Of a stretch of 64,000 nt of DNA, positions 7,290-46,570 are shown piece after piece. The first letter of the stretch is position 1. Each line of letters opens with the position of its first letter. Position numbers and translations under genes: made by a program. Under the pieces are notes generated by a model. It was not told the origin of the DNA and did not search any database. It saw only the letters and a list, made by a program, of their open reading frames with translations. Origin of the DNA: an uncultured Pseudomonadota bacterium (lineage in GTDB: Bacteria; Babelota; Babeliae; Babelales; RVW-14); assembly GCA_964354855.1 (NCBI GenBank), contig CAYHBO010000004.1, positions 213-64,212 of the forward strand, written 5' to 3'.

Positions 7290-7296
7290 GAGCATC

Positions 7297-8691: not shown

Positions 8692-8730
8692 AAAATTTCT
8701 ATTTTGTTGGCAGCAACATTTTCTCTATCA
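8688..8730 (+). pseudogene. Displaced 5' fragment of the downstream OM-protein gene (duplication junction)
   Basis: 8701-8730 (attttgttggcagcaacattttctctatca) is 26/30 identical to 9571-9600 (codons 8-17 of ORF 9550..11571). The preceding aaaaaattt resembles atgaaaaagtt of that gene's start. Confidence 0.6.
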
Positions 8731-11659: not shown

Positions 11660-11861
11660 AGGCAAATATGTACGAATTAAAAATAACCCTAAAAACGCTC
11701 ATTTAACGCCTAAATCTTTTCAAGGTGTAACATTCTTAACCCCCCTCCCCTACCCTTTTGACGATCAAAGCCCCTCCTGGTACTATTGTTATATAATGTA
11801 AGAAATATCGCGTGGGGCGGTCATAGTTATGATTATTAATCGTATACATAAAGGGAATACC

Positions 11862-12293
11862 ATGATTAAGAAACTTTCAATGAGCTTATTGCTCGCAGCC
11901 TTAGTTGCAGCACAAGCACCGTTAGTAGCAATGCAACCAACTTCTCCTGCAGCAACAACAACCGCTAAGCCTGACACAAATTCTTGGTCTAACTTTTTCT
12001 GGGGCACAGGAACACGTAAAGCTGCAACCATCGGAAGTGGTATTGCTGCATTATTCGCTGGTTGGTTCCTTTGGAAAAAGTTCACCGCAAAGCCTGAAGA
12101 AACAACTACAGATACAATACCTAAAGGCGTCGCTAAAGAAGACGTAAAAGAAACACCGGTTATCGGAGCAAGCACTACTACTACAGAAGCACCAAAACCA
12201 GCTCAAACAGATCACGAAGCTGAATTAGCTAGACGTCGTTCAAACCCTAAGTACATGGCTGAGTTCAATCGATTTTCATTTCCAGCAAGATAA
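11862..12293 (+). CDS. Small secreted/membrane-anchored hypothetical protein
   Basis: SD aaggga 5 nt before ATG 11862. Signal peptide MIKKLSMSLLLAALVAAQAPLVA|MQ. Thr-rich linkers. One internal hydrophobic helix (AATIGSGIAALFAGWFLW). The opposite-strand ORF 11789..12175 is judged spurious. Confidence 0.5.
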   Translation: MIKKLSMSLLLAALVAAQAPLVAMQPTSPAATTTAKPDTNSWSNFFWGTGTRKAATIGSGIAALFAGWFLWKKFTAKPEETTTDTIPKGVAKEDVKETPVIGASTTTTEAPKPAQTDHEAELARRRSNPKYMAEFNRFSFPAR

Positions 12294-14476: not shown

Positions 14477-17400
14477 TTAATTTGCCAAGTAGAAGGAAAA
14501 TTGTAGAGGATCTCTTGGTGCATTAAGTCCATTTCCAATCAACGTACCGGTAGTCAATCCTAACGCAATATTACCTTTTGGTAACAAGACCGGAGCGATA
14601 TCTCGCACAATCTTTGATGTATCCGCTGGATAGATATCAGTAGGATTGTTGTTCAAGTTTATAAACCCTGCTGTGAATACAAAGTTACCGGTACCAACCG
14701 CTGCTAACATCTGATTTTGTGTACCAATATTTGTACAGGTCATCAGATTAAAGAAGTCAGCCAGCGTATTTACCGTGAACTGTACACCACTTGAAACCTT
14801 CTTTGCAGTATCATTTAACAATGTATAAGACGGAAGATCGGTTCGTCTAAAGATCATCGGCGCTGAAGCCATGAGTGAGTACTGCTCACCATCTGCTTGT
14901 ACGCCTGCAAAATCCCACACGTTAGCAAAAATGTCGGGTGTTCCTGAAGGCACTAACATCATATTACCACCACCAACTACTTGAGTATTTGTTGGTCCAT
15001 TCAACCTGAAATTCCATTGAGAAGCAGGACCAACCGCAAACAGTGACGCAGAAAGATCTGCACCATTCGCGATACGGTTATGCTCAAAGCGTCCTGATTG
15101 AAGATCAATCTTGATGTTATTCACGTTAAAGAGTGCTTGAATAGTCCAACCGTTAGCTGGTTCAGTTTCCGGTGTAAAGATTGGGAAACCATGACCATCA
15201 AGAGCAGCTACGGTTCCGTTCATTACCGGATTATTCGCCGCCGTTGCATCACCATTTACATTACCATTTTTGTCGATAACACCTGCACCCAAGCCAAAGA
15301 AGCCTTGACGATCGATATGGGTACGAGGATTACCACCAAAGAGATGTTGTAAGGTAAAGTTAATGTAACTACCAGAACCTACATCAGCAGAGTTCCCAAC
15401 TTGAAATGCTCCACCTGATAACACTTCATCACCAATGTTAAATTGAGATTGACGATGCAAGCTAATCACAACATCGGTTTGTGGCGTTTGCAAGTCACTT
15501 TCTACACCAACAGACCCAGTACGAACAACGGAAAGTTTGGCATTTTTATCAAGCCAGATTTGACCTTTACCAATGATCTTACAACGTTGTTGATCAGCAT
15601 TAGAAGCAAGTACATATGGTTGTGTGTTTGTGTTCGGCTCAATTGGGCCTTCAAAAATCATTTGCGCATTATCGTTAAGATAAATGACAACCGGAGCTGC
15701 AGGGGTTGCTGAATCTTCCCCGTCACCACCATTCATCACAATATCACCATTGATATCACGAACCACCGCATCACTAGCATTTGGGAATCTAAGTATTGAA
15801 CCTTCTTCAAAGATCAATTTAAGATTGCCACCAAAGCAGATCTGTTGTGTTCCAGGAGCTTGACCAAAACTTGAAAGGTCTAGTTCTTCACCTGCTGGAA
15901 TACGAATCTCACGAGGAACTTCTGAATAGAAGGTCAAACGATTCGAATGTCCAACAATTGGATCATCATCGGTACCGGCACCGGTGTTTTGTGAGAATGA
16001 TGTTGTTGCAACAAGCGCAAGTCTGTCAGCAATGATCAGATTTGAGTTTACGTCAATAACACCATCACCAAGTGGCAATATTTGTACATAGCCTTTACCT
16101 AGACGTGTCCACGCTTTCACTGATGATTGATTATATAACGCATTACCAAGACCAATACGACCACCAAAGTCTAGGTATAAGCGAGCATTATCACCTTCAC
16201 CGACCATATGATCGCCACCAGGCAGATCTTGTGATCGAGGAATGGTTATAAACTCACGTACACGACCAGGAATAGGTAAGACTTCATCACCAGAAACTTC
16301 GAATACTAATGGATCAGATAAGGAGGCACCGGCAACTTTAAATTGTCTGATGTCATCATTGGTACCAATGTATAAGAGGTTTGTAGGCTTTACGACTGGA
16401 ACCTTAACAGTTTCAGTTGCACGAGTATGTATTGATTTTATCGAGTTTAACCAGCTTGCTGTACTACGTGTTGGAAACGGTTGGAATACCGCATTATTCC
16501 CTTCACGATTAAACCAGTTAATCATTACTTCATTAGCACCCGATTGATCACCAACTATGCGTGATGTGTTGGCAAAACTCATACGAACATACCCGGCTGT
16601 GTCAGCAGAACGCTCTGCAAACATTGCTTGAGTAAAGCCATAAGGTTGAACACCAGCTCCTTTAGCGAATATCGATTGATCATGAGGTAAATCAACAATC
16701 CCTGTTAACTGCTGAACACGATCATTACCAGCAAGGTTATAGTCGTTGCTGATCTTTTGTGCAATTACCGTGTCTACAACAGTTACATATGGTTGAGATT
16801 TAAGATTACTATCGTTTGGCCGCGTAATCGTTATCTCGCCACCATGATTAACATACATCACGCCTTGATTGTTATCACGGTTAACCGGCGAAAGAACACT
16901 TGATCCATCAGTATTAAAACCACCCCAACAAATGTAATTAGCATTAATCGATACAGTGGCTGGTGGAACAAGGAATGCATCTAACGAAAACAGATCATTT
17001 GGATTAGTACTAATCGATTCTTGCGCTGCATAGTTTAATGGATACACCGTATTCATATAAGGATATGCATTATTTAATGAACGTGTACGAGCAAATTGTC
17101 CACTTTCAACTGGCCAGCCAAGAGCAATGTTAGTACCACCCTGATCAAGCACTGAACCCAAGAACAGATGATGCGCACGTTGAGCAGCAAATTGATCGCT
17201 TACTGAATCTCCTGATGCAACAACACTGTCTGGGAATTGGTTACCATTTTGCAATTCAAGAAGAACACTCGCACTAAGATCATCAGAATTTGTTGAAGGA
17301 GCATTGCTCTTAAACACGTTCCAATAACAGTCTTGTGTTGTCCACGTTGTGGTATGCCCATCAACCATAGTATTATGTAACGAACCTTGTTGGAGAACAC

Positions 17401-20365
17401 GTCCAAAACCGGTGAAGTTCGTATCGTTTACATTTCCATGATCATAGAATTTAACGACCGAGGTATTGTTTCCAGCCTGCCCTTTAACATCTGGGGTACT
17501 GCCATCAATTTGCGTAAATAATCCATCAGCTAACAAGACCGGAACATCTTTAACAACCCAACGTACACCTGATGAATTTAATGACTCGAACAGATGTAAG
17601 GTTGAACTATACAATTGAATTTCCGGTAAACGCCAACGATCACGATCAGTTAATGAGTTAATGTCTCCTGTGTCAAACGTGAAAAAGCGTGATGCAAAAT
17701 AATTACGTTCTCCACCAACTATGGATGCTTCAGATGCCGCTGGATTACCGTCAACCAGTTTTGTAACGTCACTATGAACAAAATTAGTGTTCATAACATA
17801 TAAGTTATCGTTCAAAAATATCGCTGGAGAATTATAACGATTATAATTATCGCCAATCACCAATGGACGGTTGTCTATTTCATTACCGGTATAGTCAATA
17901 GCGATAGTCGGCATATTTACAATACCTGCTTGTGAAACAACGCTTGAATAGCTACGCGCACCGCAAGCATTAAGAGGATCAAGCACCGTATTACTTGGGT
18001 ATGACCAAACAATACACTTTCCTTCAACTTCAAGGACGTGTTGCCCTTCTCCACTTAAAACAACACTCAGCGATCCATCACAACATTTTTCTGTTGTACC
18101 TGACTGATTAGCATCTACCGGTGCAGAAAGGTTATAACCATCATAATTACCATGACCAACAAGTAATACTTCATTAAAGTTTAACGAAGGATTATCAATT
18201 GGATTATCACTAGTACTACACTCACCACTTTCTTCACCACCACTAAGATTAACTGCAAATTTTGGTGTTCTGAAAGCAGCTGCTTGCTCTATATGACTAG
18301 GGCTTCTTAGTTGTGATGGAATTAATGAACTCCAAAAATTATAAATATAACCTAGTTTTGAAGAACCTGACGCTCTTAAAAGTACGGTACCATCACCACG
18401 AAGATTAACGCGTGCACATATAGGACGATCACGCAAGAGAGGGTTTGCAGCCTCAAACGATGAAAGACCTTGTAAAAACAACGTTGTATCAAGTCCGTCT
18501 ATAACTAAGGCAGCTGGATTTTTCGGTTTAATCAACGATTCAGCATCAACCGAATTATTCGAGTAGTCATTAATCGCAAGAAGATCCGCTTGATTAATCG
18601 ACCCTGCAACATAGTCTAAGAAGGTATTATGATTAATATCCAATGCTCCGTTAATACCTACAACAAAACCATTACGCACATTTCTAAGGTAAACATTATT
18701 ATGTATGTTCAAACCTTTTGAATAAGACCAATCATAACCAAATATAAATGTTGGGCCTCCTGTCTCTTGTGTAAAACAATTAAATGCTGGTTCAGTAAAA
18801 GAACAACAATCTCTTAAAGCCTCTTTCTTTGCAGCAGCACTTCTTTTCCCCTTAACCGATTTAGTCGGCGAATCTTTAAGAAGTGATCTAGATAAGTTAT
18901 TCGGCGTATTAAGGAAATCAAGATAAGGATCAGCAGCTCGTTTACTTACCGACTGACAATCGTTAATCACTAAAAGACCACGTCTTTTTTGAGGATTATA
19001 CGACTTACTTACATCTCTATTGTTATAGAATTGATCATCAGTTACACGAACAATGGCTTGTCCACCAGCGGGTTCTGAATAATTAAGTTTTGTCCGAATA
19101 TCAACTGGGTTAAAACTCTTAACATAATGTCCTGCAACAATAAATGATCCTTCATTGAATGGATATTTTTTATTAATGGCTAGATATCCAGGATCAGATG
19201 TTGCAAAAAGATTCGTGTCAAATCCAAAAGTATATGCACCAAGAATAAATAGAACCATACGACCTTGGCCATTGTTTGATGGATCAAACGCAACGGAAGC
19301 AAAATTGCCAAAATCTGCGTTTGATTCATGCGCAATACCGGTACCATCAGTAGAAACAAAGGAGAATATGGAGTTATGACCAATTACAATACCAACACGA
19401 CTGTCATTAGTACAAGTACCATTTGAGTTAAGGCTTGTCCGTTGAAATACAACCTTATCTGAGAAGCAATTTACATCAGCCTGTGTTTGTTCCATCGTAA
19501 CAAATACTTTGGTACCACCAGCTTTATTACTGAGCCCATTTAAAGCACTTCCTGAACAAGTGTCTATAGAATTACAGGTATCAATACCTCCAATAAATTT
19601 GACCAATGTTCCGTCATCTAGATTGAAAACTACTCTTCCCTTGCCAGCAAAGGTAATGAACATATCAAGAGGTTCAAAATTTGCACAAGCATCTTCACCT
19701 TCACCGCTACGGGTGAATTCTAAGCCTTTAATGTTCTCAAAAGCTGACTTCTTTACACCACTTCTTAATGTAGATGATCCAAGAGTGCGGCCTTGAAAAA
19801 CAAGGTTATTCTTAACATTAACGGTAATTGTTTTCCCACGACTTGGATTGAAGTAAATCTGAGCATGTCCCGTCCCTGAGTTACTGCCACCATCCCCAAA
19901 GTCATCTCCGGTTGGATCAATATAAGGAACAATAGTAGTTGCGGTTTCAATATTCACCGTCATATCAACTGTATCTGCAATCAGAGAAATATCCCCATCA
20001 ATTTTAAGAGGACAATCTGCACCGGTTTTGTTTAATAAACCATAAATGTTAAGAGTGCTATCACCTTGAGTAGCGGTAAAGCTGGTATTCGATGTATGAT
20101 TACGTGAATTCTTTTGCTTCTTAGCAGCAAGCTCACCTTTTTTTGCTTCATCCTTGTCTCGAAACATTAGTACATCTACAACACTGTCCCCACTTGCGTA
20201 AGTATCACATGGGCCACTTGGCGTAGAATTATTATAGGCATAGTTAACACCATTAACCTCTTGTACACAATCCCCAACAGGTACCCAGTCAAACGCCATT
20301 ACTGATAACGGCGACGTGATTAATCCTGCTGAAAGGAGCAGTGCTTTAAGTCTATTTTGTATCAT
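14477..20365 (-). CDS. Giant secreted surface protein (1962 aa), N/G/T/S/V-rich, probably beta-helical; adhesin or S-layer-like candidate
   Basis: Uninterrupted ORF. Preferred start is ATG 20365, preceded by aagggagag. Signal peptide MIQNRLKALLLSAGLITSPLSVMA. No recognisable catalytic domain. The track start at 20473 lacks an RBS. Confidence 0.75.
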   Translation of the reverse strand: MIQNRLKALLLSAGLITSPLSVMAFDWVPVGDCVQEVNGVNYAYNNSTPSGPCDTYASGDSVVDVLMFRDKDEAKKGELAAKKQKNSRNHTSNTSFTATQGDSTLNIYGLLNKTGADCPLKIDGDISLIADTVDMTVNIETATTIVPYIDPTGDDFGDGGSNSGTGHAQIYFNPSRGKTITVNVKNNLVFQGRTLGSSTLRSGVKKSAFENIKGLEFTRSGEGEDACANFEPLDMFITFAGKGRVVFNLDDGTLVKFIGGIDTCNSIDTCSGSALNGLSNKAGGTKVFVTMEQTQADVNCFSDKVVFQRTSLNSNGTCTNDSRVGIVIGHNSIFSFVSTDGTGIAHESNADFGNFASVAFDPSNNGQGRMVLFILGAYTFGFDTNLFATSDPGYLAINKKYPFNEGSFIVAGHYVKSFNPVDIRTKLNYSEPAGGQAIVRVTDDQFYNNRDVSKSYNPQKRRGLLVINDCQSVSKRAADPYLDFLNTPNNLSRSLLKDSPTKSVKGKRSAAAKKEALRDCCSFTEPAFNCFTQETGGPTFIFGYDWSYSKGLNIHNNVYLRNVRNGFVVGINGALDINHNTFLDYVAGSINQADLLAINDYSNNSVDAESLIKPKNPAALVIDGLDTTLFLQGLSSFEAANPLLRDRPICARVNLRGDGTVLLRASGSSKLGYIYNFWSSLIPSQLRSPSHIEQAAAFRTPKFAVNLSGGEESGECSTSDNPIDNPSLNFNEVLLVGHGNYDGYNLSAPVDANQSGTTEKCCDGSLSVVLSGEGQHVLEVEGKCIVWSYPSNTVLDPLNACGARSYSSVVSQAGIVNMPTIAIDYTGNEIDNRPLVIGDNYNRYNSPAIFLNDNLYVMNTNFVHSDVTKLVDGNPAASEASIVGGERNYFASRFFTFDTGDINSLTDRDRWRLPEIQLYSSTLHLFESLNSSGVRWVVKDVPVLLADGLFTQIDGSTPDVKGQAGNNTSVVKFYDHGNVNDTNFTGFGRVLQQGSLHNTMVDGHTTTWTTQDCYWNVFKSNAPSTNSDDLSASVLLELQNGNQFPDSVVASGDSVSDQFAAQRAHHLFLGSVLDQGGTNIALGWPVESGQFARTRSLNNAYPYMNTVYPLNYAAQESISTNPNDLFSLDAFLVPPATVSINANYICWGGFNTDGSSVLSPVNRDNNQGVMYVNHGGEITITRPNDSNLKSQPYVTVVDTVIAQKISNDYNLAGNDRVQQLTGIVDLPHDQSIFAKGAGVQPYGFTQAMFAERSADTAGYVRMSFANTSRIVGDQSGANEVMINWFNREGNNAVFQPFPTRSTASWLNSIKSIHTRATETVKVPVVKPTNLLYIGTNDDIRQFKVAGASLSDPLVFEVSGDEVLPIPGRVREFITIPRSQDLPGGDHMVGEGDNARLYLDFGGRIGLGNALYNQSSVKAWTRLGKGYVQILPLGDGVIDVNSNLIIADRLALVATTSFSQNTGAGTDDDPIVGHSNRLTFYSEVPREIRIPAGEELDLSSFGQAPGTQQICFGGNLKLIFEEGSILRFPNASDAVVRDINGDIVMNGGDGEDSATPAAPVVIYLNDNAQMIFEGPIEPNTNTQPYVLASNADQQRCKIIGKGQIWLDKNAKLSVVRTGSVGVESDLQTPQTDVVISLHRQSQFNIGDEVLSGGAFQVGNSADVGSGSYINFTLQHLFGGNPRTHIDRQGFFGLGAGVIDKNGNVNGDATAANNPVMNGTVAALDGHGFPIFTPETEPANGWTIQALFNVNNIKIDLQSGRFEHNRIANGADLSASLFAVGPASQWNFRLNGPTNTQVVGGGNMMLVPSGTPDIFANVWDFAGVQADGEQYSLMASAPMIFRRTDLPSYTLLNDTAKKVSSGVQFTVNTLADFFNLMTCTNIGTQNQMLAAVGTGNFVFTAGFINLNNNPTDIYPADTSKIVRDIAPVLLPKGNIALGLTTGTLIGNGLNAPRDPLQFSFYLAN

Positions 20366-20901
20366 CGGCTCTCCCTTCTTATGAAATAACATAAAACACC
20401 ATGTTTTACTTTTTTCTTTCGGCTTGCTGTATGTCACACAGCCTCCTTTCCTTTTCAAAGAAATCATTTTCAAGAATGTATAAAAAATAAATGATTACCT
20501 AGGGACCTAGGCTAAAGCGGGAATAGTAAGGAACTAAAAAAAATTTTTTAGGTCGGCAGACAGCATATTGATGACCAATAATAAGCCCTAATGACTCTTT
20601 CCTCACAAAGCTCTCCCTTTTCTCTCTTCTCTTCATTATTACCATCCAAAAGATCTTTGGCGTAAAAATTATACTAAATTTAACCATAACTCACGTCCTC
20701 CAAATGTCAAGGAAAGGACGGGAGCAGAAAATAACATAATTTTTTAGACCCAATGACCGGTTTACGCTAAACTACTTAGTAACAATATTTTATAATTCTC
20801 TTAAAATTTATCGCGAGCTAACCAATAAAACGCCTCCAGTGTAGTTAATGGACCAGTAAGAAAGTAAAGACTTTCTTTAAAATTGTTTCAGGAGTTTAAA
20901 A

Positions 20902-22771: not shown

Positions 22772-23511
22772 ACAACACCCTCATCCCAACGCAACTCTTT
22801 GTCGGCAACGGCATTGACCTGATTCAGCACGTCGAACAATATCTTCAGCAACGCTTGTGTAGTAATCCACAAGAACCCGCTGGCTGTTTTTGTACTTCTT
22901 GCAGACAAATCAAAAATCACCAACATCAAAAACTCCTCTGGCTCAAACCTGAACGAGATTATAAACTTCAAGACATCGAAGTTATTTTTGAACGCACCGC
23001 TTTTTCACTTGATCAAAATGACCACTATTTCTTTGTACTTGAACAGGCGGACACCTTCAATGTCGCCACAGGGAATAGGCTTCTCAAACTTCTTGAAGAA
23101 CCTCCAACGGGATACAATTTTATCCTGATGACCAACAACGAAGACGCAATCCTTAAAACCATTGTATCGCGTTGCCACATCGTACGCTTAGATCAAACAC
23201 AAGAAGATGCATCCCTACACCCTCTACTCGCTTTTTTCATGATCCCGCATCGCCGCGATGACCCATTCGCCTTTGAACAGTTAATTAAACAACTACATCT
23301 TTCAGATAATCAAAGTGTCCAACTCGCCAACCAACTCATGAACCAACTTTTCCAAAAAATGACCCTGGCTTACGAACAAGATATTGAGATTGTTGAAACG
23401 TACCAGGGCCTTTTAAGTATCGTTCAAAAAGCATTACTCAAGCCACCACAGTCAGGGAGCTCCGAAATTTTCTGGAAAAATATTTATCTTCAGTTTGATG
23501 CATGGCTATGA
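22768..23511 (+). CDS. holB: DNA polymerase III delta' subunit (short form)
   Basis: ATGA overlap with the tmk stop. NRLLKLLEEPP, SRCHIVRL and the Cys cluster CFCTSC. Conserved tmk-holB linkage. Confidence 0.8.
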   Translation: MNNTLIPTQLFVGNGIDLIQHVEQYLQQRLCSNPQEPAGCFCTSCRQIKNHQHQKLLWLKPERDYKLQDIEVIFERTAFSLDQNDHYFFVLEQADTFNVATGNRLLKLLEEPPTGYNFILMTNNEDAILKTIVSRCHIVRLDQTQEDASLHPLLAFFMIPHRRDDPFAFEQLIKQLHLSDNQSVQLANQLMNQLFQKMTLAYEQDIEIVETYQGLLSIVQKALLKPPQSGSSEIFWKNIYLQFDAWL

Positions 23512-24461
23512 TCGCAATTCGTCGCTTCCTCCTCAACGCCATGCAGACGCAACTTCTCCTCTCCATCATGGCGCTCCCCATTTTAGTCCATTGGGGCTTG
23601 CCCATGTCTCTCATGACACTTGTCGGCAATTTAATTTTCACGCCCATCTTAACCATCATGCTGATTATCAGCTCACTTATTTTTTTTACTGAACTTTGTT
23701 TCGTACCGAACAGCTATCTCTTAAACATTTTGGACATGCTCGTGTATGCCTGGAACAACTGTCTACACCTAGGCAATGCCGGATGGATGATGGGGTTTGT
23801 TCACCCGGGAATTATCATTCTTACACTTATTCCCGTAAGCACTTTCATTTTTCTAAAGAGTCGCTGGGGAAAAACACTTGAACAACGAGTCGCGGGTATG
23901 GCTGCGTTACTTATCACCAGCTGCTTCGTGCTGTGGGGCTATGGCAGACTTCAAGAACCAATAACACTCAAGCATGATAAATTCACTGTCTCAACAGACA
24001 CTCACCATCACTTAACTTTTATTGATAACGGCTATTTCAATAAAAAAGCAACTCCAGACAAAGGCGTTGAGTTTGATCTCAAGCCATATCTCACTAAAAA
24101 ATTCGGAACTCCTATCATTAATCATCTCATCCTAAATAAACCATCTCAAAGAAGTTTTTTAGGAGCTCTTGCTCTTTGTGAAAATTATATGATACAAAAA
24201 ATCACTGTTCCATTTTGGAAGCAAAAAGATAATAACCAAAAAATTTGCTGGGCTTATGGTAAATTAAAACGAAAAACACAAGAACTTAAGATTACTTTAA
24301 ACCGCAGCGGTACCGGAGTAAGTGATGAAAAAAATATTACTAGTACTAGTCCTTCTAGGCGAAATAACCGTTCATCAAAGCAATACAATGATACCAAAGA
24401 AATCAACAGTAAGAATACCCACAACAATATCCAACCCAAAAAAAACTTCAATCCTTCATGA
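23502..24461 (+). CDS. Truncated/degenerate ComEC/Rec2-like membrane protein
   Basis: TM-rich N-terminus resembles the ComEC competence domain (TQLLLSIMALPILVHWGLPMSLMTLVGNLIFTPIL). LTFIDNGYF sits where the metallo-beta-lactamase domain begins, but no HxHxDH is seen. The K/N-rich tail overlaps the next gene. Confidence 0.5.
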   Translation: MAMIAIRRFLLNAMQTQLLLSIMALPILVHWGLPMSLMTLVGNLIFTPILTIMLIISSLIFFTELCFVPNSYLLNILDMLVYAWNNCLHLGNAGWMMGFVHPGIIILTLIPVSTFIFLKSRWGKTLEQRVAGMAALLITSCFVLWGYGRLQEPITLKHDKFTVSTDTHHHLTFIDNGYFNKKATPDKGVEFDLKPYLTKKFGTPIINHLILNKPSQRSFLGALALCENYMIQKITVPFWKQKDNNQKICWAYGKLKRKTQELKITLNRSGTGVSDEKNITSTSPSRRNNRSSKQYNDTKEINSKNTHNNIQPKKNFNPS

Positions 24462-24900
24462 AGAACGTACTCCATGTTTGCCTCCACTAGCCGCAGCCTA
24501 CGAATGTTTATTTTGTCTCATAAATTTAATCAAGCAAACCCCAAGAATTATTACCCAACATTTTAATGGAAAAACACTTCTCCATCATGCAGCAAGTGGA
24601 TATATATCTGAAGATGTTAGAGGAGATACTACGAATGCAATGGACCTTCTACTAAGCAATGGCGCTGATATCAATGCCACTGCAAGCAAAGAAAATTTTT
24701 TGGGGTGTACCCCTCTTGCGTTTGCACTTCTTAATGATTATGTGGAAGGAGCTCGATGGCTTTTAAATCGAAAGGCAACAATTTGTGAATCAGCACGTCT
24801 ATACGCTCGCTGGCATAACATTGATTTGAATAACCAATCATTACCAAGATCTTCTTCTGATAAAGAAGAATGGATAAATATTTCTCCTCCATCAGAGTGA
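24325..24900 (+). CDS. Secreted CxxC-ankyrin repeat protein, paralog 1
   Basis: SD ggagtaa. Signal peptide MKKILLVLVLLGEITVHQSNT|M. ECLFCL. ANK repeats GKTLLHHAASGY...LLLSNGADINA and GCTPLAFALLNDYVEGARWLL. Confidence 0.8.
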   Translation: MKKILLVLVLLGEITVHQSNTMIPKKSTVRIPTTISNPKKTSILHEERTPCLPPLAAAYECLFCLINLIKQTPRIITQHFNGKTLLHHAASGYISEDVRGDTTNAMDLLLSNGADINATASKENFLGCTPLAFALLNDYVEGARWLLNRKATICESARLYARWHNIDLNNQSLPRSSSDKEEWINISPPSE

Positions 24901-24977
24901 ATCAATCATCTGAACGTAGGGTTTGTTACACTAGAACGAAAATAATAAAGCTGAACTTCACATTATTGGAGAGTAGT

Positions 24978-25691
24978 ATGAAGACCATAAGTTTACTACT
25001 GGCTATCGTTGCTACATGCACGTCAAACCAAAGCAACTCCATGCAACCAAAACCTCAACCAACAAAAACAGGCACAGAAGCCCAAACAGATGAATCTGTT
25101 TATTGTATTCGATCTCAATGGGGTCTTGATACAAACACATGCTCTCTTTCTCAGTCCATAGAACACGAATGTTTAAACTGCCTTAGAAGAGCTCTTGATG
25201 AACAACCAGAACTCATTAATCAAGTCGACAACGGGCTTACGCTGCTACACTTCGCAGCAGCACATGGCAAGATTGAAGCCATGTCTCTCTTATTAGCTCA
25301 TGGTGCCCATATCAATGCCATATCTTCTGATCCAAAATACAAAGATTATACCGCGCTTTGTTTTAGCATCAAATTCAACTACCCCCTCTGCGTTGAATTT
25401 CTTGTAAAAAGCAAAGCAGCATTAGAATCGGCCAGGATCATTGCTCAACAATGTAAAATCGATTTGGAATCAATCATAAAACGATATACATCAATCGAAA
25501 TACCTCAACAAAGAGCGCCACTGACAACTCAAGAGTATAACCGCCCTATAAATAACCTCCCTTCAACAGCCGTAAGTGCACCTAATCTGACTCAAACAAA
25601 TCTCGATAAAGAATGGGAGATGGTACCTCATCCTCCACAGAAGACTACTGTCCCAAAAACTGGATCTTGGGATGATGAAGGATTAGATTAA
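24978..25691 (+). CDS. Secreted CxxC-ankyrin repeat protein, paralog 2
   Basis: SD ggagag. Signal peptide MKTISLLLAIVATCTSNQSNS|MQ. ECLNCL. GLTLLHFAAAHGKIEAMSLLLAHGAHINA. Confidence 0.8.
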   Translation: MKTISLLLAIVATCTSNQSNSMQPKPQPTKTGTEAQTDESVYCIRSQWGLDTNTCSLSQSIEHECLNCLRRALDEQPELINQVDNGLTLLHFAAAHGKIEAMSLLLAHGAHINAISSDPKYKDYTALCFSIKFNYPLCVEFLVKSKAALESARIIAQQCKIDLESIIKRYTSIEIPQQRAPLTTQEYNRPINNLPSTAVSAPNLTQTNLDKEWEMVPHPPQKTTVPKTGSWDDEGLD

Positions 25692-25809
25692 AAAGACTAA
25701 ATCACATAAGTCTCAACAATTTTTCTACAGCTCTTGTGCTTTACCAAAATTATTAGGTACAACCTTAAATACTCAATAGAAAAAAGATGATGTATAGGGG
25801 AAATTGAGA

Positions 25810-26481
25810 ATGAAATATTTAGGGATACTTCTCACCATAGGAATAGGATTAAGTTGTACAGAAATTTATGCGATGCAAAGACAGACCGACTCGCAACCAA
25901 CACCCAGCTGTTGCATATTTAAAAACGAATCATGCTCTCCTCATCAGGCCGCAGCGCGCGACTGTCTTTCTTGCCTTGCTTCATTTATTGTTAGAGTTCA
26001 AAAGAACACAATAGATATCAACATTAAATCTATAACGGGACTTTCACCACTCCATTGCGCAATAAGCTCAGGACAAATAAGAGCTGCTTTCCTATTAATA
26101 GCTGCTGGAGCAAATAAAAATGAAAAATCTCAAGACCCTAATTTTCTAGGATATACACCTCTATGCTTAGGAATCATGAACAATAAACATCATGTAATTG
26201 AATTTCTATTAAGATACGATGTATTACTTGATAACGCCTATGAAGTAGCAGAAAAATATAAATTTGATTTAGAAGAACTTATAAAACGTTTAGAACGAGA
26301 AAAAAATAAAACATTCAAAGAGAGAGAAGCGCAATGCTCTCTTTTACAAAAACCTTCGGTAGAGAAAGAAGTACAAACAGTCGAACGATTATTCAAAGAA
26401 AGTAGTATACAAACAGCAATGACTGGAGATAACCAATGGTATCTTCCAGACGATGCCGACCAAGAGATCGACGATGACTAA
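25810..26481 (+). CDS. Secreted CxxC-ankyrin repeat protein, paralog 3
   Basis: Signal peptide MKYLGILLTIGIGLSCTEIYA|MQ. DCLSCL. GLSPLHCAISSGQIRAAFLLIAAGANKN; GYTPLCLGIMNNKHHVIEFLL. Confidence 0.8.
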   Translation: MKYLGILLTIGIGLSCTEIYAMQRQTDSQPTPSCCIFKNESCSPHQAAARDCLSCLASFIVRVQKNTIDINIKSITGLSPLHCAISSGQIRAAFLLIAAGANKNEKSQDPNFLGYTPLCLGIMNNKHHVIEFLLRYDVLLDNAYEVAEKYKFDLEELIKRLEREKNKTFKEREAQCSLLQKPSVEKEVQTVERLFKESSIQTAMTGDNQWYLPDDADQEIDDD

Positions 26482-26516
26482 AATAAAATTAACAAAAGAA
26501 TCCTGGGAGATTGGAA

Positions 26517-27296
26517 ATGAAAAAAACGAGTTTATTTTTAATGGTAATGGGATTGCTAATATCTATAGAAGTAAAAGCCATGCAGTGGGTGCAGCGGTCG
26601 GCAGCGCATCTTTCAAACCACGGATCAAGAAACGCAGAAGATTTTAGCGGCAAGCAACTCCCCCAAATCATACAAACCACAAAATGCCCAGCATGTCTTC
26701 AAGAACGACTTGAAAAAGATTCATCTGATCTTGAAACTTATATAGATGGGTTTAATGCTCTCCACTGGGCAGTTATAAAAAAATACGCACCTTTTGTAAC
26801 TATACTTATAGAAGCAGGGGCAAACATACATGCAAAGACGCAGAATGAAAATCCTGAGTCAACACTTTGTGTAGCTATACGGCATAGACATGGAGAATGC
26901 GCAGATATTCTAATACGACAAGGAGCTCGTGTTAATGAAAAAGCTTTTACAGTAGCATCTCATGCTAAATTTAAACTTAAATCTCTTGTAAACGATATCC
27001 TTAAAGAAGAAATTATAATTAACTGTGAAGACGACCCTGATAAACTACAAGCCCAACAAACACCACCACTCACAGTTACTACAACCCAAGAAGAAATCGT
27101 CATGACAGATGGCATGCCTCCAGCACAAGAAAGAGTCGCGGCTCTTCTAGTAGCACAACGAAAACAAGCCCTACCAATTCCACCAGCAACAAGCTTCGAG
27201 GAAGATACCGATAATTGGTGGATCATTCATAGAGCGCCAAAAGACCCTGTAGCAGAGGCCCCAAGCTGTCAAATGCTTACAGAAGATGAAAAGTAA
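26517..27296 (+). CDS. Secreted CxxC-ankyrin repeat protein, paralog 4
   Basis: SD gggaga. Signal peptide MKKTSLFLMVMGLLISIEVKA|MQ. CPACL. GFNALHWAVIKKYAPFVTILIEAGANIHA. P/Q/T-rich tail. Confidence 0.75.
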   Translation: MKKTSLFLMVMGLLISIEVKAMQWVQRSAAHLSNHGSRNAEDFSGKQLPQIIQTTKCPACLQERLEKDSSDLETYIDGFNALHWAVIKKYAPFVTILIEAGANIHAKTQNENPESTLCVAIRHRHGECADILIRQGARVNEKAFTVASHAKFKLKSLVNDILKEEIIINCEDDPDKLQAQQTPPLTVTTTQEEIVMTDGMPPAQERVAALLVAQRKQALPIPPATSFEEDTDNWWIIHRAPKDPVAEAPSCQMLTEDEK

Positions 27297-27888
27297 CGGT
27301 ATGAAAATAGTTTTATTATTCCTACTCACCCTTTCAATAGCTTCAACTACACATGGCATGTTACTTATACCTCAACGATTAACCGAACAAAGCTTTGTAA
27401 CCACCGCAGTACATAAGTTACTTATAGGCAATACATACTGCTACACCCCAGAACAAGCAATAAAAAATCAATGTGAATCATGCTTTGTTACATGGGTAGA
27501 TTGGCTCATCCATGGCCCACAAAAAAATCTCTTAAATACAACTAACCAAGATGGCTACACCCCTCTTCATCTGGCAATCATGAAAGGGCTTGATACTTAT
27601 GTGTCACATCTACTTTTACAGGGAGCTTGCATCTTGGCTCCGGTTGGACAAGAACAACATTATCATAAAGGCTACACGCCCCTTCAGTTAGCAATCGTCT
27701 ACGGAAAAAAAGAATGTATCAAAGTCTTACTTCAAGATTTGCATTTCCATAACGTTGATCTAAGAGGCACCTGGGATTTTGCAAAAAATTATGGGATTGA
27801 AGTACAAAAAATCTATGAGCAAGCTGACCAGGAAATTGGACGAAAAAGATTGACCCCAGTAATGGGGGTAGTTGTAAATAAAGAATAG
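27286..27888 (+). CDS. Secreted CxxC-ankyrin repeat protein, paralog 5
   Basis: Alternative start at 27301 (MKIVLLFLLTLSIASTTHG|M). CESCF. DGYTPLHLAIMKGLDTYVSHLLLQGACI; GYTPLQLAIVYGKKECIKVLL. Confidence 0.8.
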   Translation: MKSNGMKIVLLFLLTLSIASTTHGMLLIPQRLTEQSFVTTAVHKLLIGNTYCYTPEQAIKNQCESCFVTWVDWLIHGPQKNLLNTTNQDGYTPLHLAIMKGLDTYVSHLLLQGACILAPVGQEQHYHKGYTPLQLAIVYGKKECIKVLLQDLHFHNVDLRGTWDFAKNYGIEVQKIYEQADQEIGRKRLTPVMGVVVNKE

Positions 27889-27924
27889 AAAAAAATGTAA
27901 CATTTTAAGCTGGGGGGCGTAAAA

Positions 27925-28449
27925 ATGAAAAATATTTTATTACTTCTACTCGTCATGGCCATTATACCAACAATATGCTGTATGAAACCAATAACAGTTC
28001 CTGTTCCGTTACAAGGCAGAACCTGGTTTCAGCAAAAATCATACCAAGCAACGCATTGGGCTTTGCATCCTGATCAGTACTGCGCCTCTGCTCTCACAGC
28101 CATAAAGCGTAACTGTGGATCCTGTTTCGAGGCTTGGGTAAATGCTACTCCTGATATTGCTGAAGGAGAAAAAAACCAACTTGATGAACTAGATACTGAT
28201 GGCTACACACTTATCCACCGTGTAATTTTATTAAACTATTCCGATGGGGTAAGACTTCTTATTACAAAAAGAGCTAGTATCGAAACACTCGTAGGAAAAA
28301 CGAATCAACAGTTTTCTGGATACTCGCCACTAAGGCTAGCAAGAACACTAAAAAAACAAGAGTGTATCGACGTCTTACTTGAAAATGGCGCAAAAGATGA
28401 GTGCCCAGAAAAACAGAGAAAACAATTAGAACAGATGGAACAAGAATAA
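27925..28449 (+). CDS. Secreted CxxC-ankyrin repeat protein, paralog 6
   Basis: Signal peptide MKNILLLLLVMAIIPTICC|M. CGSCF. DGYTLIHRVILLNYSDGVRLLITKRASI; GYSPLRLARTLKKQECIDVLLENGA. Confidence 0.75.
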   Translation: MKNILLLLLVMAIIPTICCMKPITVPVPLQGRTWFQQKSYQATHWALHPDQYCASALTAIKRNCGSCFEAWVNATPDIAEGEKNQLDELDTDGYTLIHRVILLNYSDGVRLLITKRASIETLVGKTNQQFSGYSPLRLARTLKKQECIDVLLENGAKDECPEKQRKQLEQMEQE

Positions 28450-28460
28450 TCGGCTTAAGT

Positions 28461-29381
28461 TTACTTCATTAAAACATAAGCACGAATCATTTCACGTAAC
28501 AATTCAGCAGAGTCTGATGGATGAAAAGATAATGGATTTTTTGACAGCCAGATTTCATGAGAGTATGACATAACAAGTCGATCTTCAAATCTATCCGCAT
28601 TAGCAAGAAGTTTAATGAAATTCTCTATAGTATTCTCATCTATAAAATCAAGAACGATCCCTGGACAAGAAAATTGTGGTTTTGAAATAAACAGTTCAAG
28701 TTGATTAAAAAAACAAGACCCACGAATCGTTTCTTCAAAAGACCTAAGACCCTTGGAGCTACGTGGAAATTCAATAGCAATATTTACACAATCACGCTTA
28801 GTCGATGCGCATAACGCATCAAGATATCTATGATAAGCTTGAGACGCTTCTTGAGAAGGAGCTTGCGATGCCTCACGAACTACAACCCCCTCACCATCAG
28901 GAAGATACCAAGACCCTGAAAATGCCATAAATCCATAATGAGTATCTTGAACATTATTTTTCTCATCAATAATTTTCATCGCTTCTACTACCCAGGCTGG
29001 AGATTGTCCTAATGAAAAAATATTATATAATTTATCTGGATATCGAACCTTAATAAAATTATTCGTTTTAATTGCCAAAGAAACCAATGTGCGCAAACCA
29101 GATGGCGTTAAGAGGGGATGTAATCTGTATTTACACGTTTCAGGATCATGCTTAGACGCAGTATAGTTAATTAGCTTACTTACTTTTATTCTCGGCCAAA
29201 ACCGTTTTATAACTTCCCATGCTTTGTGGTCATAAGCTTCAATTTCTTTAATTTTAAGCGTATCTCTAATCTCTTGGTCACTACTAACAGCTTCAACAGA
29301 AGGCTCTTGCATTCCTAAAGCATTATATTCCTGCATCAAAGAAAAAATAAAAAATAAATTTGTGAGTATCTTAAAATTCAT
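28461..29381 (-). CDS. Secreted hypothetical protein (306 aa)
   Basis: Long ORF with signal peptide MNFKILTNLFFIFSLMQEYNALG|MQEP. No recognisable domain. Confidence 0.55.
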   Translation of the reverse strand: MNFKILTNLFFIFSLMQEYNALGMQEPSVEAVSSDQEIRDTLKIKEIEAYDHKAWEVIKRFWPRIKVSKLINYTASKHDPETCKYRLHPLLTPSGLRTLVSLAIKTNNFIKVRYPDKLYNIFSLGQSPAWVVEAMKIIDEKNNVQDTHYGFMAFSGSWYLPDGEGVVVREASQAPSQEASQAYHRYLDALCASTKRDCVNIAIEFPRSSKGLRSFEETIRGSCFFNQLELFISKPQFSCPGIVLDFIDENTIENFIKLLANADRFEDRLVMSYSHEIWLSKNPLSFHPSDSAELLREMIRAYVLMK

Positions 29382-29410: not shown

Positions 29411-29884
29411 TTAATCATCACGAGAAGAGGGAACCTCTCCACCTTCAGCCTGCTCCAAAGCTAACCGCCGCTGTTTATTCAATCGATTATTTATAAAATT
29501 AATCCGCATAAACATTGGACACTCTTTTCTAGGAAAACGATTCTTAAGATCTTCATCAGAGAATTGACTAAGATCTTCGTTATTTCTTATGAGTTTGAAA
29601 CGCCTCAGTAATATAATTAAATCATTGCGATCAAGGGCATTAAATCGTTCTGCAGGAATTATACTTATTGGTGTAGTCGCAAAATCAATTGTGGAAACCC
29701 TTTCTTGCAGTTGTCGTTGTCTATGTGAGCGACGAAAACGTAATGGCATACCACTCGTCAATCGCAATGAAACCTCTCCATCAGGAGAGATTTCTTTAGG
29801 ACTTTCTTGCATAGCATATACTTCATTACTTCCCACAAGACCAAGAAGCCCTAGAACGAGCATATTACGTTTAATTATATTCAT
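29411..29884 (-). CDS. Secreted hypothetical protein, Arg-rich
   Basis: Preferred start at 29884 gives the signal peptide MNIIKRNMLVLGLLGLVGSNEVYA|MQESP. The track start at 29926 adds a second hydrophobic stretch with no RBS. No recognisable domain. Confidence 0.5.
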   Translation of the reverse strand: MNIIKRNMLVLGLLGLVGSNEVYAMQESPKEISPDGEVSLRLTSGMPLRFRRSHRQRQLQERVSTIDFATTPISIIPAERFNALDRNDLIILLRRFKLIRNNEDLSQFSDEDLKNRFPRKECPMFMRINFINNRLNKQRRLALEQAEGGEVPSSRDD

Positions 29885-32413: not shown

Positions 32414-33406
32414 ATGAAAAAATTATACACACTAATAACCTATGTAATCACGCTTCTGCTAGGAAGTTCTTGCTGTGCACTATCACTTAAAAGTACACAG
32501 GGATACAAAACTGATTCCCCACTATTTGCCAATGGTGACAGCATCTGTGGTTTTGTAAGCCTCAAAAAAGGATTTCAAGCAACAGGCGGCGACACCATCA
32601 CATTCGATACCGATGGCACCCTATCCGGCCCAGTAAAAGTTCACGGCGACGGTCCACTCACCATCTCTCTTGCAGGAGACTTACACCTTGGTTCAGGATT
32701 TAATCTACAAACCCCTCTTATTCTTCGTGGACACAAAACAGCTCTCGTACTTGGCGCAGCGTTACATTTACCAGCCAGCTATCCGTTAAATATTGACGGA
32801 GAAACAACCATTAATGGAATGGGTCATGAACTCTCTTCTGAAAAAGCAATTAAGATTAATGACCAAGCAAAGCTCACCCTACGCAACCTCACACTATCAA
32901 GCACCAATGATCATCTTTTTGATATGGAACCGACCGCACAAGGCGTTGAACTTAATACTGTTGTGCTTAATGTAAACGGCGTCCAAAGTTTAGTTAACGA
33001 TTTTGGAAATATCGTTATTCACAATAAAGTGACTATTCAAGGCTCGTCAGACGCTAAAATAATTTTACCTGCAAATGCAACGCTCACCATTATGCCTCAT
33101 GCTACCCTATGCATTGAAGGAGTAATATTATCATGCGAAAATACCTCCTCAGAAAATCAAATTCGTTTCATTGATGAAACATCAACCATTAATTTGAATC
33201 AAAGCTCATTTGAACTTCTTGGTAATGCCATTTTTACTAAAGGAAGAATTACCTGCAACAACGAAGTAATTTTAAATGTCACAGCAGAAAGAAGTCTCAT
33301 CTTTGGCGATGGAGAAAATAAAAAAAATAACTTTAATTTAATGTTGCTCGGCGGGACATCAGTCAAACTTGATGGCAGCGGCATCATTATTGATCGTTCA
33401 GTATAA
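32414..33406 (+). CDS. Secreted hypothetical protein, beta-helix-like repeats; first gene of the glycosylation island
   Basis: Signal peptide MKKLYTLITYVITLLLGSSCCA. Recurrent short beta-strand motifs (LTLRNLTLSS, VVLNVNG, VTIQGSS, LTIMPHATLCIEG). No catalytic motif recognised. Confidence 0.5.
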   Translation: MKKLYTLITYVITLLLGSSCCALSLKSTQGYKTDSPLFANGDSICGFVSLKKGFQATGGDTITFDTDGTLSGPVKVHGDGPLTISLAGDLHLGSGFNLQTPLILRGHKTALVLGAALHLPASYPLNIDGETTINGMGHELSSEKAIKINDQAKLTLRNLTLSSTNDHLFDMEPTAQGVELNTVVLNVNGVQSLVNDFGNIVIHNKVTIQGSSDAKIILPANATLTIMPHATLCIEGVILSCENTSSENQIRFIDETSTINLNQSSFELLGNAIFTKGRITCNNEVILNVTAERSLIFGDGENKKNNFNLMLLGGTSVKLDGSGIIIDRSV

Positions 33407-33431
33407 TTACTCAGGCAATAAAGGACTAATC

Positions 33432-34643
33432 ATGATCTTTTTAAAATACTATCGCATAGCAAGCGTAGCTTTCTTATTTTTTTTCCCCAACATAAACACA
33501 TTACCAATCACTGACAACAACCCCCCATCGATTCTGCATCTACACTTTAAATGTCCCGATCCAGGTGGCATTGAATCTCATTTAATTGGCCTCAATAAAA
33601 TTTTCAATGAAAAAGGCATCAAAAATATTGTTCTTACCAGTAAATATTCCACCTTTTTGATTGATGCACTCAACCAGCCAGCACAAGAAAATGGCAAGTC
33701 TTGCCGAACTTTTGATCATCCTTTATTCGATCCAATTAACACTGACATACAAGCAATCTATGAAAAAGATAATGTTGCCGTTATCGTCAGTAATTGGCCC
33801 GGAGGATTAAATTCAAGCGTCAATTTTGCAGAACACTTTCCCGTTAAACTTGTCTATATGCATCATAATTTTGTTCATGATTTTGATGATACTGAAATAG
33901 AGAACCTCAATAAAACAAATGGCATTCTTGCGGTATCTCCAATAGCTGCGGCTTATTTTAAAGAATTATCTAATTCCGAAAAAATCCAAGTCAAAAATAT
34001 AGAACATATGGCGCCATTTTGGGATGAAGACAAATATCTCACCTATCAACTAAAGTATACAAAAAAGGAATTTTTCAAGAACACATTCAATCTTGATATC
34101 ACTGATGATTATCCAATCATTTGTTCAGTTGCCAACCTCTACTGGTATAAAAATCATCAGGTGCTTATCAAAGCGTTAGGCTTATTACACCATAAAGATC
34201 AAACCAAATTTCATCTTATCCTTGCAGGTGATGGCCCAGAAAGAAAAAAACTTGAACAACTCACTGCAAGTCTAAAATTAACAAACTACGTTCATTTCAT
34301 TGGAAAAACATTAGAAGTCCCAGAACTTCTTTACCATGCAGACCTTCATGTATTGCCAAGCTCTCACGAAAGTTTTGGGCTTGTACATCTTGAAGCGGCA
34401 ACCATGAAAAAACCTTTCGTTGGCGCTACAAAAACCGGCGCAGAAGGATTTATTCAACAGGGCATCACCGGATTTATTTTTGAAAATAACAATGCACAAG
34501 ATCTCGCAGAAAAATTAAAGATATTACTTAATGACTCAACATTACGAAAAACCATGGGAGAAAAAGCGTTTACCTATGTACGTCAGCATTATGCAAATAA
34601 AGTTATCTTTGATAAGTGGGTAGACTTTTTAGGAAAAATTTAG
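33432..34643 (+). CDS. GT4-like (group 1) glycosyltransferase with N-terminal signal/anchor, paralog 1
   Basis: SD aaggac before ATG 33432. MIFLKYYRIASVAFLFFFPN. GT-B C-terminal signature LPSSHESFGLVHLEAATMKKPFVGATKTGAEGFIQQGITGFIF. Confidence 0.8.
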   Translation: MIFLKYYRIASVAFLFFFPNINTLPITDNNPPSILHLHFKCPDPGGIESHLIGLNKIFNEKGIKNIVLTSKYSTFLIDALNQPAQENGKSCRTFDHPLFDPINTDIQAIYEKDNVAVIVSNWPGGLNSSVNFAEHFPVKLVYMHHNFVHDFDDTEIENLNKTNGILAVSPIAAAYFKELSNSEKIQVKNIEHMAPFWDEDKYLTYQLKYTKKEFFKNTFNLDITDDYPIICSVANLYWYKNHQVLIKALGLLHHKDQTKFHLILAGDGPERKKLEQLTASLKLTNYVHFIGKTLEVPELLYHADLHVLPSSHESFGLVHLEAATMKKPFVGATKTGAEGFIQQGITGFIFENNNAQDLAEKLKILLNDSTLRKTMGEKAFTYVRQHYANKVIFDKWVDFLGKI

Positions 34644-36701: not shown

Positions 36702-36862
36702 TTTTCCCATCAAAAACCCTTTATCTTTCAAGTAATCATATTCAATTTGAAAACATTGTTGATATTTATCTTAAATAATAGGTAAGATCAACCCTGATGG
36801 TAATTATAACTAATAATTACAAACTATTTATTTGATAAATAAGCGGTAAGAAAAAGAGTGCT

Positions 36863-44103: not shown

Positions 44104-44220
44104 GGCGTAAGATTGTTTGTAAAGAAGTATTTTTATCTTGACGAAGAAGTTCACTATCCCATAAGCTCACTCTTATACAATCTAAAACATATAATGAATT
44201 TTTTTGGAGAAGGAAGATTA

Positions 44221-46508: not shown

Positions 46509-46570
46509 CCAAATTTTGTATAATTTTCAAACATTAAGTTATTTTTGAGGACAGAGGAAAGGTAAAATCA

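Follow-up and report, generated by a model that had tools for sequence, protein, structure and literature searches.

The DNA analysed here is a 64-kb window (the whole stretch under study, from contig CAYHBO010000004.1; all coordinates below are positions in it) which carries, at 24325-28449, six successive open reading frames (ORFs) on the forward strand, called g1 to g6 in order. Each encodes a small protein with a signal-like N-terminal segment, a single Cys-x-x-Cys (CxxC) motif, ankyrin repeats and a variable tail. We favour, with a probability of roughly 0.6, a reading in which tandem duplication within one lineage of Dependentiae (Babeliales-like) bacteria produced the six genes, whose products are small ankyrin binders exported by Sec and would be released from the cell to bind host proteins.

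The start codons given in Table 1 were chosen from the alignment of the paralogues together with Shine-Dalgarno (SD)-like GGAG or GGGG sequences 6-12 nt upstream. For g1, a GGAG lies 8 nt before the start at 24325. The longest ORF for g2 (from 24870) runs into g1, and 24978 is favoured by a preceding GGAG and by the alignment to g1 and g3. The resulting proteins are 174-259 residues long; a first-pass annotation, made from the sequence alone, had counted the same six forward-strand genes, but its upper length of 261 residues came from longest-ORF starts. Public gene calls on identical contigs instead begin g1 at 24478 (140 aa, P0003) and g2 at 24870 (273 aa). These calls (window 24322-24900 and 24870-25691; 8669-9091 and 9061-9882 in L001) shorten g1, avoiding its overlap with an upstream ComEC-like ORF, and lengthen g2 upstream, with the consequence that the signal segments of both are hidden from predictors run on the deposited proteins. 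The gaps between the array genes are 4-118 nt, and a promoter and terminator consensus scan of the array returned nothing beyond shuffled controls. The six genes are probably co-transcribed, and the transcript possibly takes in the degT-like, tmk, holB and ComEC-like genes that precede them on that strand.

Pairwise identity among the six proteins is 20-34%, and the closest pairs are physical neighbours (g1-g2 34%, g2-g3 31%, g5-g6 34%), which is the pattern expected of stepwise tandem duplication. BLASTP alignments between these neighbours (76, 76 and 77 bits, respectively) start at residue 1 and span the signal segment, the linker, the N-terminal cap (N-cap) with its Cys region, and the repeats. 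Because the homology reaches beyond the repeats, g1-g6 are a true paralogous family, and not a chance cluster of ankyrin genes or a reflection of the ankyrin consensus alone; the earlier description of a tandem family with one shared architecture is borne out. Eleven alignment columns are invariant: the initial MK, one Leu of the hydrophobic segment, the two CxxC cysteines and six residues of the ankyrin framework (G, the H of TPLH, three L and one A). A family hidden Markov model (HMM) run over the 64-kb window found no copy besides these six.

The ankyrin assignment is supported at several levels. Matches to Pfam Ank_2 (PF12796) / Ank (PF00023) exceed the curated gathering score for g1-g5, which match Ank_4 as well, and the strongest Pfam Ank match of the family is that of g5 (44.8 bits). 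The g6 protein falls slightly short (24.8 versus 27.3 bits for Ank_2) and is homologous end to end with g5 (77 bits, residues 1-154). With a single-repeat HMM, each protein yields two canonical repeats (in g5, at residues 84-113 and 124-145), while the Pfam multi-repeat models in g1-g3 begin at or just before the CxxC region (residues 45-97 of g3, for example, correspond to Ank_4 positions 2-50). An AlphaFold2 model of g3, built on the six-sequence alignment, has a predicted local distance difference test score above 90 at residues ~41-170 and contains four helix pairs (44-49/53-66, 80-86/90-98, 117-123/127-134 and 143-149/154-178). The helices of the g6 model (56-61/65-74, 96-102/106-114 and 135-141/145-153) correspond to the first three of these pairs, with a weak terminal helix. 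Foldseek searches of the PDB with the g3 model returned designed and natural ankyrins with probability 1.00 over up to 130 columns; 126-130 columns aligned with the designed four-repeat protein 1n0r and on N2C designed ankyrin repeat proteins (DARPins). The domain as modelled is one continuous four-unit ankyrin stack, comprising a degenerate N-cap, two canonical repeats and a degenerate C-terminal cap (C-cap), in which the CxxC region forms the predicted outer helix of the N-cap and the 'A....KIDL' helix is part of the predicted C-cap.

This layout refines that of the first-pass annotation, which saw a CxxC helix, two ankyrin repeats and a further helix. The two canonical repeats stand, and the count is explained by the single-repeat HMM detecting internal repeats only; the separate helix modules do not, being merged into the stack by AlphaFold2, Foldseek and Pfam alike. 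The AlphaFold modelling proposed at that stage was run here on g3 and g6 and gave an ankyrin stack. Two of the sequence patterns then put forward hold for part of the family: the lead-in '[FY].G[YC][TS]PL' is matched in full by g1, g3 and g6 and loosely by g2 and g5 but is absent from g4, and the helix 'A....[KN][IF][DE]L' is found in g1-g3 but is degenerate in g4 and g5 and missing from g6. The tails are variable and P/Q/T-rich or acidic, as had been described (P/Q/T-rich in g2, acidic in g3, P/T/Q/E-rich in g4, and short in g1 and g5).

The most distinctive feature of the family is the CxxC motif. Each protein contains exactly one, the six motifs quoted previously were all found, and both cysteines are invariant columns. 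As a reference set, the ~225 unrelated ankyrin proteins that came up in the family searches supplied 1660 canonical repeats (anchor G-x-[TS]-[PA]-L-[HM]-x-A). Cys occupies both equivalent positions in one of the 1660, any CxxC falls in that part of the repeat in two, and Cys at the equivalent of the second position alone is an ordinary core variant, seen in 7%. Being rare elsewhere and invariant in six proteins of 20-34% identity, the CxxC is a genuine family signature. The overall Cys content of the family is 3.1%, compared with 1.5% for all ORFs of the window. In both AlphaFold2 models the first CxxC Cys directly precedes the outer helix of the N-cap and the second lies in its first turn. 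An additional upstream Cys had been reported in five of the six proteins at a spacing of 8-11 residues; five do carry it (g4 does not), but its distance to the first Cys of the motif is 10-11 residues. In both models it precedes the short inner helix of the N-cap by 2-3 residues, at the opposite end from the CxxC, and this predicted secondary structure makes the single three-Cys cluster suggested earlier unlikely. The CxxC would instead be a local pair, with the third Cys outside the same site. Its most likely role is as a structural aid to a weak N-cap, with the two Cys either joined in a local disulfide or paired as metal ligands at the helix N-terminus, and it may also hold a fast-folding domain in an export-competent state before it leaves the cytoplasm. 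The proteins do not resemble thioredoxin-like CxxC oxidoreductases, since the fold is an all-alpha ankyrin and no thioredoxin or Dsb Pfam family is matched.

Table 1. Genes of the ankyrin array and adjoining ORFs (window coordinates; a slash marks the putative signal peptidase site).
Feature	Position	Strand	Length (aa)	Signal-like N-terminus	CxxC (residues; nt)	Domains and evidence
g1	24325..24900	+	191	MKKILLVLVLLGEITVHQSNT/M	CLFC (61-64; 24505-24516)	N-cap, two ankyrin repeats, C-cap; short tail ending DKEEWINISPPSE; Pfam Ank_2 35.3 bits; aligns with g2 from residue 1
g2	24978..25691	+	237	MKTISLLLAIVATCTSNQSNS/MQP	CLNC (65-68; 25170-25181)	Ankyrin stack; 75-aa P/Q/T-rich tail containing DKEWEMVPHPP and GSWDDEGLD
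g3	25810..26481	+	223	MKYLGILLTIGIGLSCTEIYA/MQ	CLSC (52-55; 25963-25974)	Ankyrin stack; acidic coiled/disordered tail; AlphaFold2 model m7e9f8d9e9338, Foldseek, Pfam
g4	26517..27296	+	259	MKKTSLFLMVMGLLISIEVKA/MQ	CPAC (57-60; 26685-26696); upstream Cys absent	Ankyrin stack; 95-aa P/T/Q/E-rich tail containing DTDNWWIIHRAP
g5	27301..27888	+	195	MKIVLLFLLTLSIASTTHG/M	CESC (58-61; 27472-27483)	Ankyrin stack; short tail
g6	27925..28449	+	174	MKNILLLLLVMAIIPTICC/M	CGSC (64-67; 28114-28125)	N-cap, two degenerate ankyrin repeats, truncated C-cap; AlphaFold2 model m7f1fe3a07443; BLASTP to g5
Upstream membrane-protein ORF	23502..24461	+	319			Weakly ComEC-like; 3' end overlaps g1 start by 137 nt
Convergent ORF	28461..29381	-	306	…NALG/MQEPS		No family match
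ORF	29411..29884	-	157	MNIIKRNMLVLGLLGLVGSNEVYA/MQESP		No family match

All six proteins begin with the anatomy of a Sec signal peptide: an MK(K/T/Y/I/N) n-region, a Leu/Ile/Val-rich h-region of 9-14 residues and then a polar stretch. The favoured cleavage sites are SNT/M, SNS/M, IYA/M, VKA/M, THG/M and ICC/M for g1 to g6, with a small residue (A, G, S or C) at -1 in five, the less common T in g1, and I, V, S or T at -3. A simple hydrophobicity rule flagged all six array proteins and none of the recognisable cytoplasmic ones (RNase E/G, GatB, MurC, DegT-like, Tmk, HolB, SufB, SufD and AlaS). In five of the six genes an SD-like GGAG or GGGG lies 6-12 nt before the start that includes the signal segment, and none precedes the conserved internal Met; a leaderless isoform starting there was considered as the main product and rejected on that ground. 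Both AlphaFold2 models show a lone N-terminal helix followed by a low-confidence linker. The n/h/c anatomy, the -3/-1 rule, the hydrophobicity rule and the placement of the SD-like sites together support a putative Sec signal peptide in all six, as called earlier, and its probable cleavage. A lipoprotein reading of g2, g3 and g6 was rejected because there is no lipobox ([LVI][ASTVI][GAS]C): VATC in g2, GLSC in g3 and PTIC or TICC in g6 fail the -1 or the -2/-3 rules, and g1, g4 and g5 have no Cys in this region. DARPins fold so quickly that post-translational Sec export fails them, and they require strongly hydrophobic leaders of the signal recognition particle type (PMC9594773). The Leu-rich h-regions of g1-g6 fit such a need.

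Two recurrent features lie outside the folded domain. The first is a Met, often as Met-Gln or Met-Asn, directly after the predicted cleavage site in unrelated signal-bearing proteins (VA/MQP, YA/MQR, KA/MQW, LG/MQE, YA/MQE, YG/MNN, QA/MTD and NA/MNQ). It is seen in the window at 11829-12293, 24978-27296, 28461-29381(-) and 29411-29884(-), and in relatives at 3584-4801(-), 6958-8460 and 8928-9728 of L004 and 6794-7492 of L084. Across the Dependentiae loci, [AGSCT]M stands at the predicted site in 17 of 70 signal-like ORFs, against ~9% expected. None of these Met codons is preceded by an SD-like site, and the orthologue of ORF 11829 in L084 has no such motif. The post-cleavage Met could stem from homology of the leader regions or from a preference of the peptidase, or could act as a sorting cue. 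The second feature is a tail Trp with acidic or polar residues around it: DKEEWINISPP in g1 (24853-24885), the two g2 motifs of Table 1 (25596-25628 and 25659-25688), GDNQWYLPDD in g3 (26412-26447) and the g4 motif (27204-27239). The tails of g1-g4 are otherwise unalignable and modelled with low confidence, and g5 and g6 have no such motif. The Trp motifs are possibly short linear motifs for docking to the host. Three of them match the [DE]x[W]xx[ILV] pattern of LC3-interacting regions or Atg8-interacting motifs, a reading that was not retained because L, I or V at +3 occurs in three of six versus ~1.5 expected, which is not significant. On a speculative view, the [A/G/S]/M-Q/N junction and the tail Trp motifs might serve as additional sorting or host-docking signals.

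The organism belongs to the Dependentiae/Babeliales, as shown by its SufB (76% identity to a Candidatus Dependentiae metagenome-assembled genome, MAG) and its GatB (named relatives Candidatus Babeliales/Dependentiae, at 61-65%). A Logan contig (SRR16642447_3424, 178.6 kb; here L084, record 131374-152831) represents the closest relative sampled; it encodes a GatB of 79% identity and is syntenic with positions 1-20 kb of the window. At a threshold of 90% identity, none of the proteins checked, SufB included, clusters with any other of 15 billion sequences, which indicates a rarely sampled lineage; g4 (P0002 in the protein collection) likewise forms a singleton cluster. Members of the Dependentiae are obligate intracellular parasites of protists, and given this lifestyle the effector role suggested by the first-pass annotation is plausible. 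Ankyrin proteins with signal peptides abound in the phylum: Babela massiliensis encodes 126 ankyrin proteins, 79 of them with signal peptides (PMC4378268), and Chromulinavorax destructans 98, of which 78% have one, as do 44% of all its coding sequences (PMC6561590). The Babela genome has many tandem duplications and islands mixing ankyrins with other predicted secreted proteins, and type II is the sole secretion system found in it (PMC4378268). Components of the type II secretion system (T2SS), including two copies of gspD, are core to TM6 genomes (PMC4776705). Secretion of the signal-bearing ankyrins into the host has been proposed for Babela and Chromulinavorax, by inference only (PMC4378268; PMC6561590). 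The combination of a signal peptide with ankyrin repeats, noted previously as untypical of type IV secretion system (T4SS) effectors, is indeed so for those of Legionella and Coxiella but is the norm, on these counts, for Dependentiae.

Searches for relatives of the family beyond this MAG were negative, with limits that differ between methods. When the family alignment was run as a profile, exhaustively, against 1.84 billion representatives, 447,868 matches came back, of which the best 150 were all giant multi-repeat ankyrins; the outcome is uninformative on orthologues. A word-indexed search with the same alignment returned three self proteins and generic ankyrins, and is a weak test given that it missed g2, g3 and g5 themselves; none of its 75 non-self matches has a CxxC ahead of the repeats. 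Searching with the N-cap/CxxC segment produced 11 candidates, none significant. A metagenome scan with g3 found no relative, and one with the neighbouring DegT-like gene, which was aimed at syntenic loci, found relatives at ≤39% identity only. The syntenic sufB loci in 80 genomes hold no family member. In L004, the nearest Dependentiae relative in the genome collection, the slot upstream of sufB is taken by other signal-bearing proteins, including a 500-aa ankyrin without a CxxC, which suggests a fast-turnover effector locus. In L084 the stretch read ends ~3-4 kb before the expected start of the array; over 130 kb of the contig lie past that end, where an orthologous array, if present, would be expected. 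The HMM-type search for the same architecture elsewhere that had been proposed thus yielded no member outside this MAG, a weak negative given the limits just described.

Our favoured model is as follows. Signal peptidase I would cut at [A/G/S/T/C]/M, leaving a mature protein predicted to consist of an unstructured linker of 20-35 residues, the four-unit ankyrin stack and, in g1-g4, a disordered tail. Sec export would deliver the protein to the periplasm, where it would fold, with the CxxC stabilising the weak N-cap outside the bacterial cytoplasm. Release to the host cell might then follow via the T2SS or outer-membrane vesicles, and the ankyrin groove, possibly with the short Trp-containing tail motifs, would bind host proteins. 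Since the paralogues are only 20-34% identical and keep just the framework and the CxxC, their divergence fits a diversified binding specificity. Several points count against this model. A disulfide would not last if the proteins reach the reducing cytosol of the host. No family orthologue was found outside this MAG, by searches that were weak or swamped, and the conservation of the CxxC thus rests on six paralogues. Neither T2SS nor Dsb genes were seen in the 64-kb window, so for the route as well as for the oxidising machinery the model relies on other genomes of the phylum. Our signal calls come from an n/h/c heuristic, while the published counts for the phylum come from Phobius and SignalP. 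Finally, we know of no Dependentiae ankyrin protein for which a target, a structure or an experimental localisation has been reported.

The strongest competing explanation, though an unlikely one, is that the proteins stay in the periplasm as ankyrin binders that inhibit, chaperone or give immunity against enzymes secreted by the bacterium itself; Bd3460 of Bdellovibrio and AnkB of Pseudomonas aeruginosa are precedents. A signal peptide joined to a small ankyrin stack is what such a protein would look like, a Cys-rich protein suits the oxidising periplasm, and many of the unrelated bacterial ankyrin matches also bear signal or lipoprotein leaders. Bd3460 itself is among the Foldseek matches (rank 16, 125 columns), but it scores no better than dozens of generic ankyrins. 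Furthermore, the neighbours of the array (tmk, holB, the ComEC-like ORF, two ORFans and sufBD) include no hydrolase or other plausible partner, the ORFans being without family matches, and six very divergent paralogues with long disordered P/Q/T-rich or acidic tails resemble diversified binders rather than a dedicated immunity protein. The phylum literature also favours secretion, though by inference only (PMC6561590; PMC4378268).

Less probable again is a functional redox or metal centre at the CxxC. As a thiol-disulfide switch or as a Cu/Zn ligand pair, the motif would gate the folding or the activity of the stack, and the function of the family would be set by its Cys chemistry; this proposal overlaps our favoured model. 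Both cysteines are invariant at 20-34% identity, the pair is almost never found in other ankyrin repeats, and the position of the first Cys just before a helix with the second in its first turn, in both AlphaFold2 models, is the geometry of thioredoxin-type and heavy metal-associated (HMA)-type CxxC motifs. The fold, however, is all-alpha ankyrin and neither thioredoxin nor ferredoxin-like. There is no conserved third or fourth ligand, the upstream Cys being missing in g4 and the sole conserved His being that of the framework TPLH, and the second Cys occupies a buried core site at which Cys is a neutral variant (7% of repeats), such that its conservation may partly reflect packing. A more elaborate version, which we regard as a long shot, makes the N-cap a redox- or metal-gated folding switch: the domain would be unfolded and competent for export in the reducing bacterial cytoplasm, locked after Sec export when the CxxC is oxidised or binds metal, and re-opened or re-tuned in the reducing host cytosol. 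An oxidation- or metal-dependent cap that delays folding is speculation, but if true it would be an undescribed means of making fast-folding repeat proteins compatible with Sec and the T2SS. Least likely of all are uncleaved signal anchors that tether the stacks to the inner membrane facing the periplasm: the sites of g1 (…SNT/M) and g6 (…ICC/M) are not textbook, but h-regions of 9-14 residues are too short for a stable transmembrane helix, polar c-regions with small -3/-1 residues follow in g2-g5, and no protein matches a lipobox.

The ORF adjoining the array upstream, which lies on the same strand as the tmk-holB genes before it, had been called a truncated comEC-like gene; an ORF is indeed there, but its ComEC identity depends on sub-threshold matches (Pfam Competence E=0.016, NCBIfam ComEC-like E=0.85). 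Of the two opposite-strand ORFs beyond g6, the farther one (29411..29884) has an E[VI][YK]A/MQ cleavage-region motif in common with g3 and g4. A compact 'secretome islet' had been inferred from these neighbours, but signal-like N-termini occur in 32 of the 52 ORFs of the window and the cluster does not stand out from that background. Elsewhere in the window, 42256-62490 holds ~20 successive genes in blocks of glycosyltransferase and methyltransferase paralogues, nearly all with signal- or anchor-like N-termini: a TylF-type methyltransferase (42256), GT92 paralogues (44113-49560), three ~365-aa proteins resembling GH130/beta-mannosyltransferases (49689-53014, weak matches), GT25 paralogues (53026-60758) and a GT92+GT11 fusion on the minus strand (60733-62490). 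On family matches, this region is a putative large, eukaryote-flavoured glycosylation island. Four further paralogues (424, 685, 416 and 409 aa) occupy 33369-39315; two match Pfam Glycos_transf_1 (GT4), and those at 33369, 34644 and 38086 have signal-like N-termini and a common LHxxxP / LNLHYRFP-type motif near the N-terminus. At 14477-20473 on the minus strand, a protein of 1998 aa that bears a signal and matches no Pfam family adjoins a 663-aa signal-bearing protein (12400-14391, minus strand), a gene order kept in L084 (20034-21458 and 18002-19969, both minus strand); the two may be a large surface or adhesin-like pair.

How do g1-g6 compare with known ankyrin systems? The Dot/Icm effectors of Legionella and Coxiella (such as AnkH/LegA3 and AnkY/LegA9) are alike in having ankyrin repeats, in belonging to intracellular bacteria of protists and in their presumed binding to host proteins. 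They differ in having, as far as is known, no Sec signal peptide and in carrying a C-terminal T4SS signal, and the NCBIfam equivalogs T4SS_AnkH and T4SS_AnkY give g1-g6 scores of 22 and 14.6 bits where the cut-offs are 600. No T4SS has been described for Dependentiae (PMC4378268), and T4SS effectors are the wrong reference class for this organism. Bd3460 of Bdellovibrio bacteriovorus (PDB 5cea/5cec; Lambert et al., 2015, cited in PMC6561590) is a small exported bacterial ankyrin stack, as g1-g6 are predicted to be, and a Foldseek match; it shows that Sec-exported ankyrins can act inside the envelope. Its gene adjoins that of its cognate endopeptidase, Bd3459, whereas the array has no such partner, and it has no CxxC, paralogue array or disordered tail. 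The designed N2C DARPins and 4ANK (PDB 1n0r, 1mj0 and 2qyj) have the same succession of cap, two internal repeats and cap, with 25-26% identity over the 126-130 aligned columns, but they are artificial, Cys-free and made in the cytoplasm; g1-g6 have natural degenerate caps, a CxxC on the N-cap, a putative signal peptide and, in g1-g4, a disordered tail.

The closest counterparts are the Sec-signal ankyrins of Babela and Chromulinavorax, which come from the same phylum, combine an N-terminal Sec signal, putative in g1-g6, with ankyrin repeats, and lie in islands with other predicted secreted ORFans where tandem duplication is common (PMC4378268; PMC6561590). On the side of the differences, no sequence-level orthologue of g1-g6 was recovered in the searches above. 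Two ankyrins at or near the syntenic sufB locus of L004 have no CxxC and score 13-28 bits against the family HMM, and the Cys-bearing N-cap is, as far as tested, specific to g1-g6. The family leaves the current picture of the phylum unchanged. Being small, with six natural variants and an invariant pair of Cys, it lends itself well to tests of ankyrin export via Sec and the T2SS and of binding partners in protist hosts. We see g1-g6 as a new, apparently lineage-restricted family within a known and expected class, its unusual detail being the invariant CxxC on an ankyrin N-cap, and as a compact example (~130 folded residues) from the very large and experimentally untouched pool of Dependentiae Sec-signal ankyrins.

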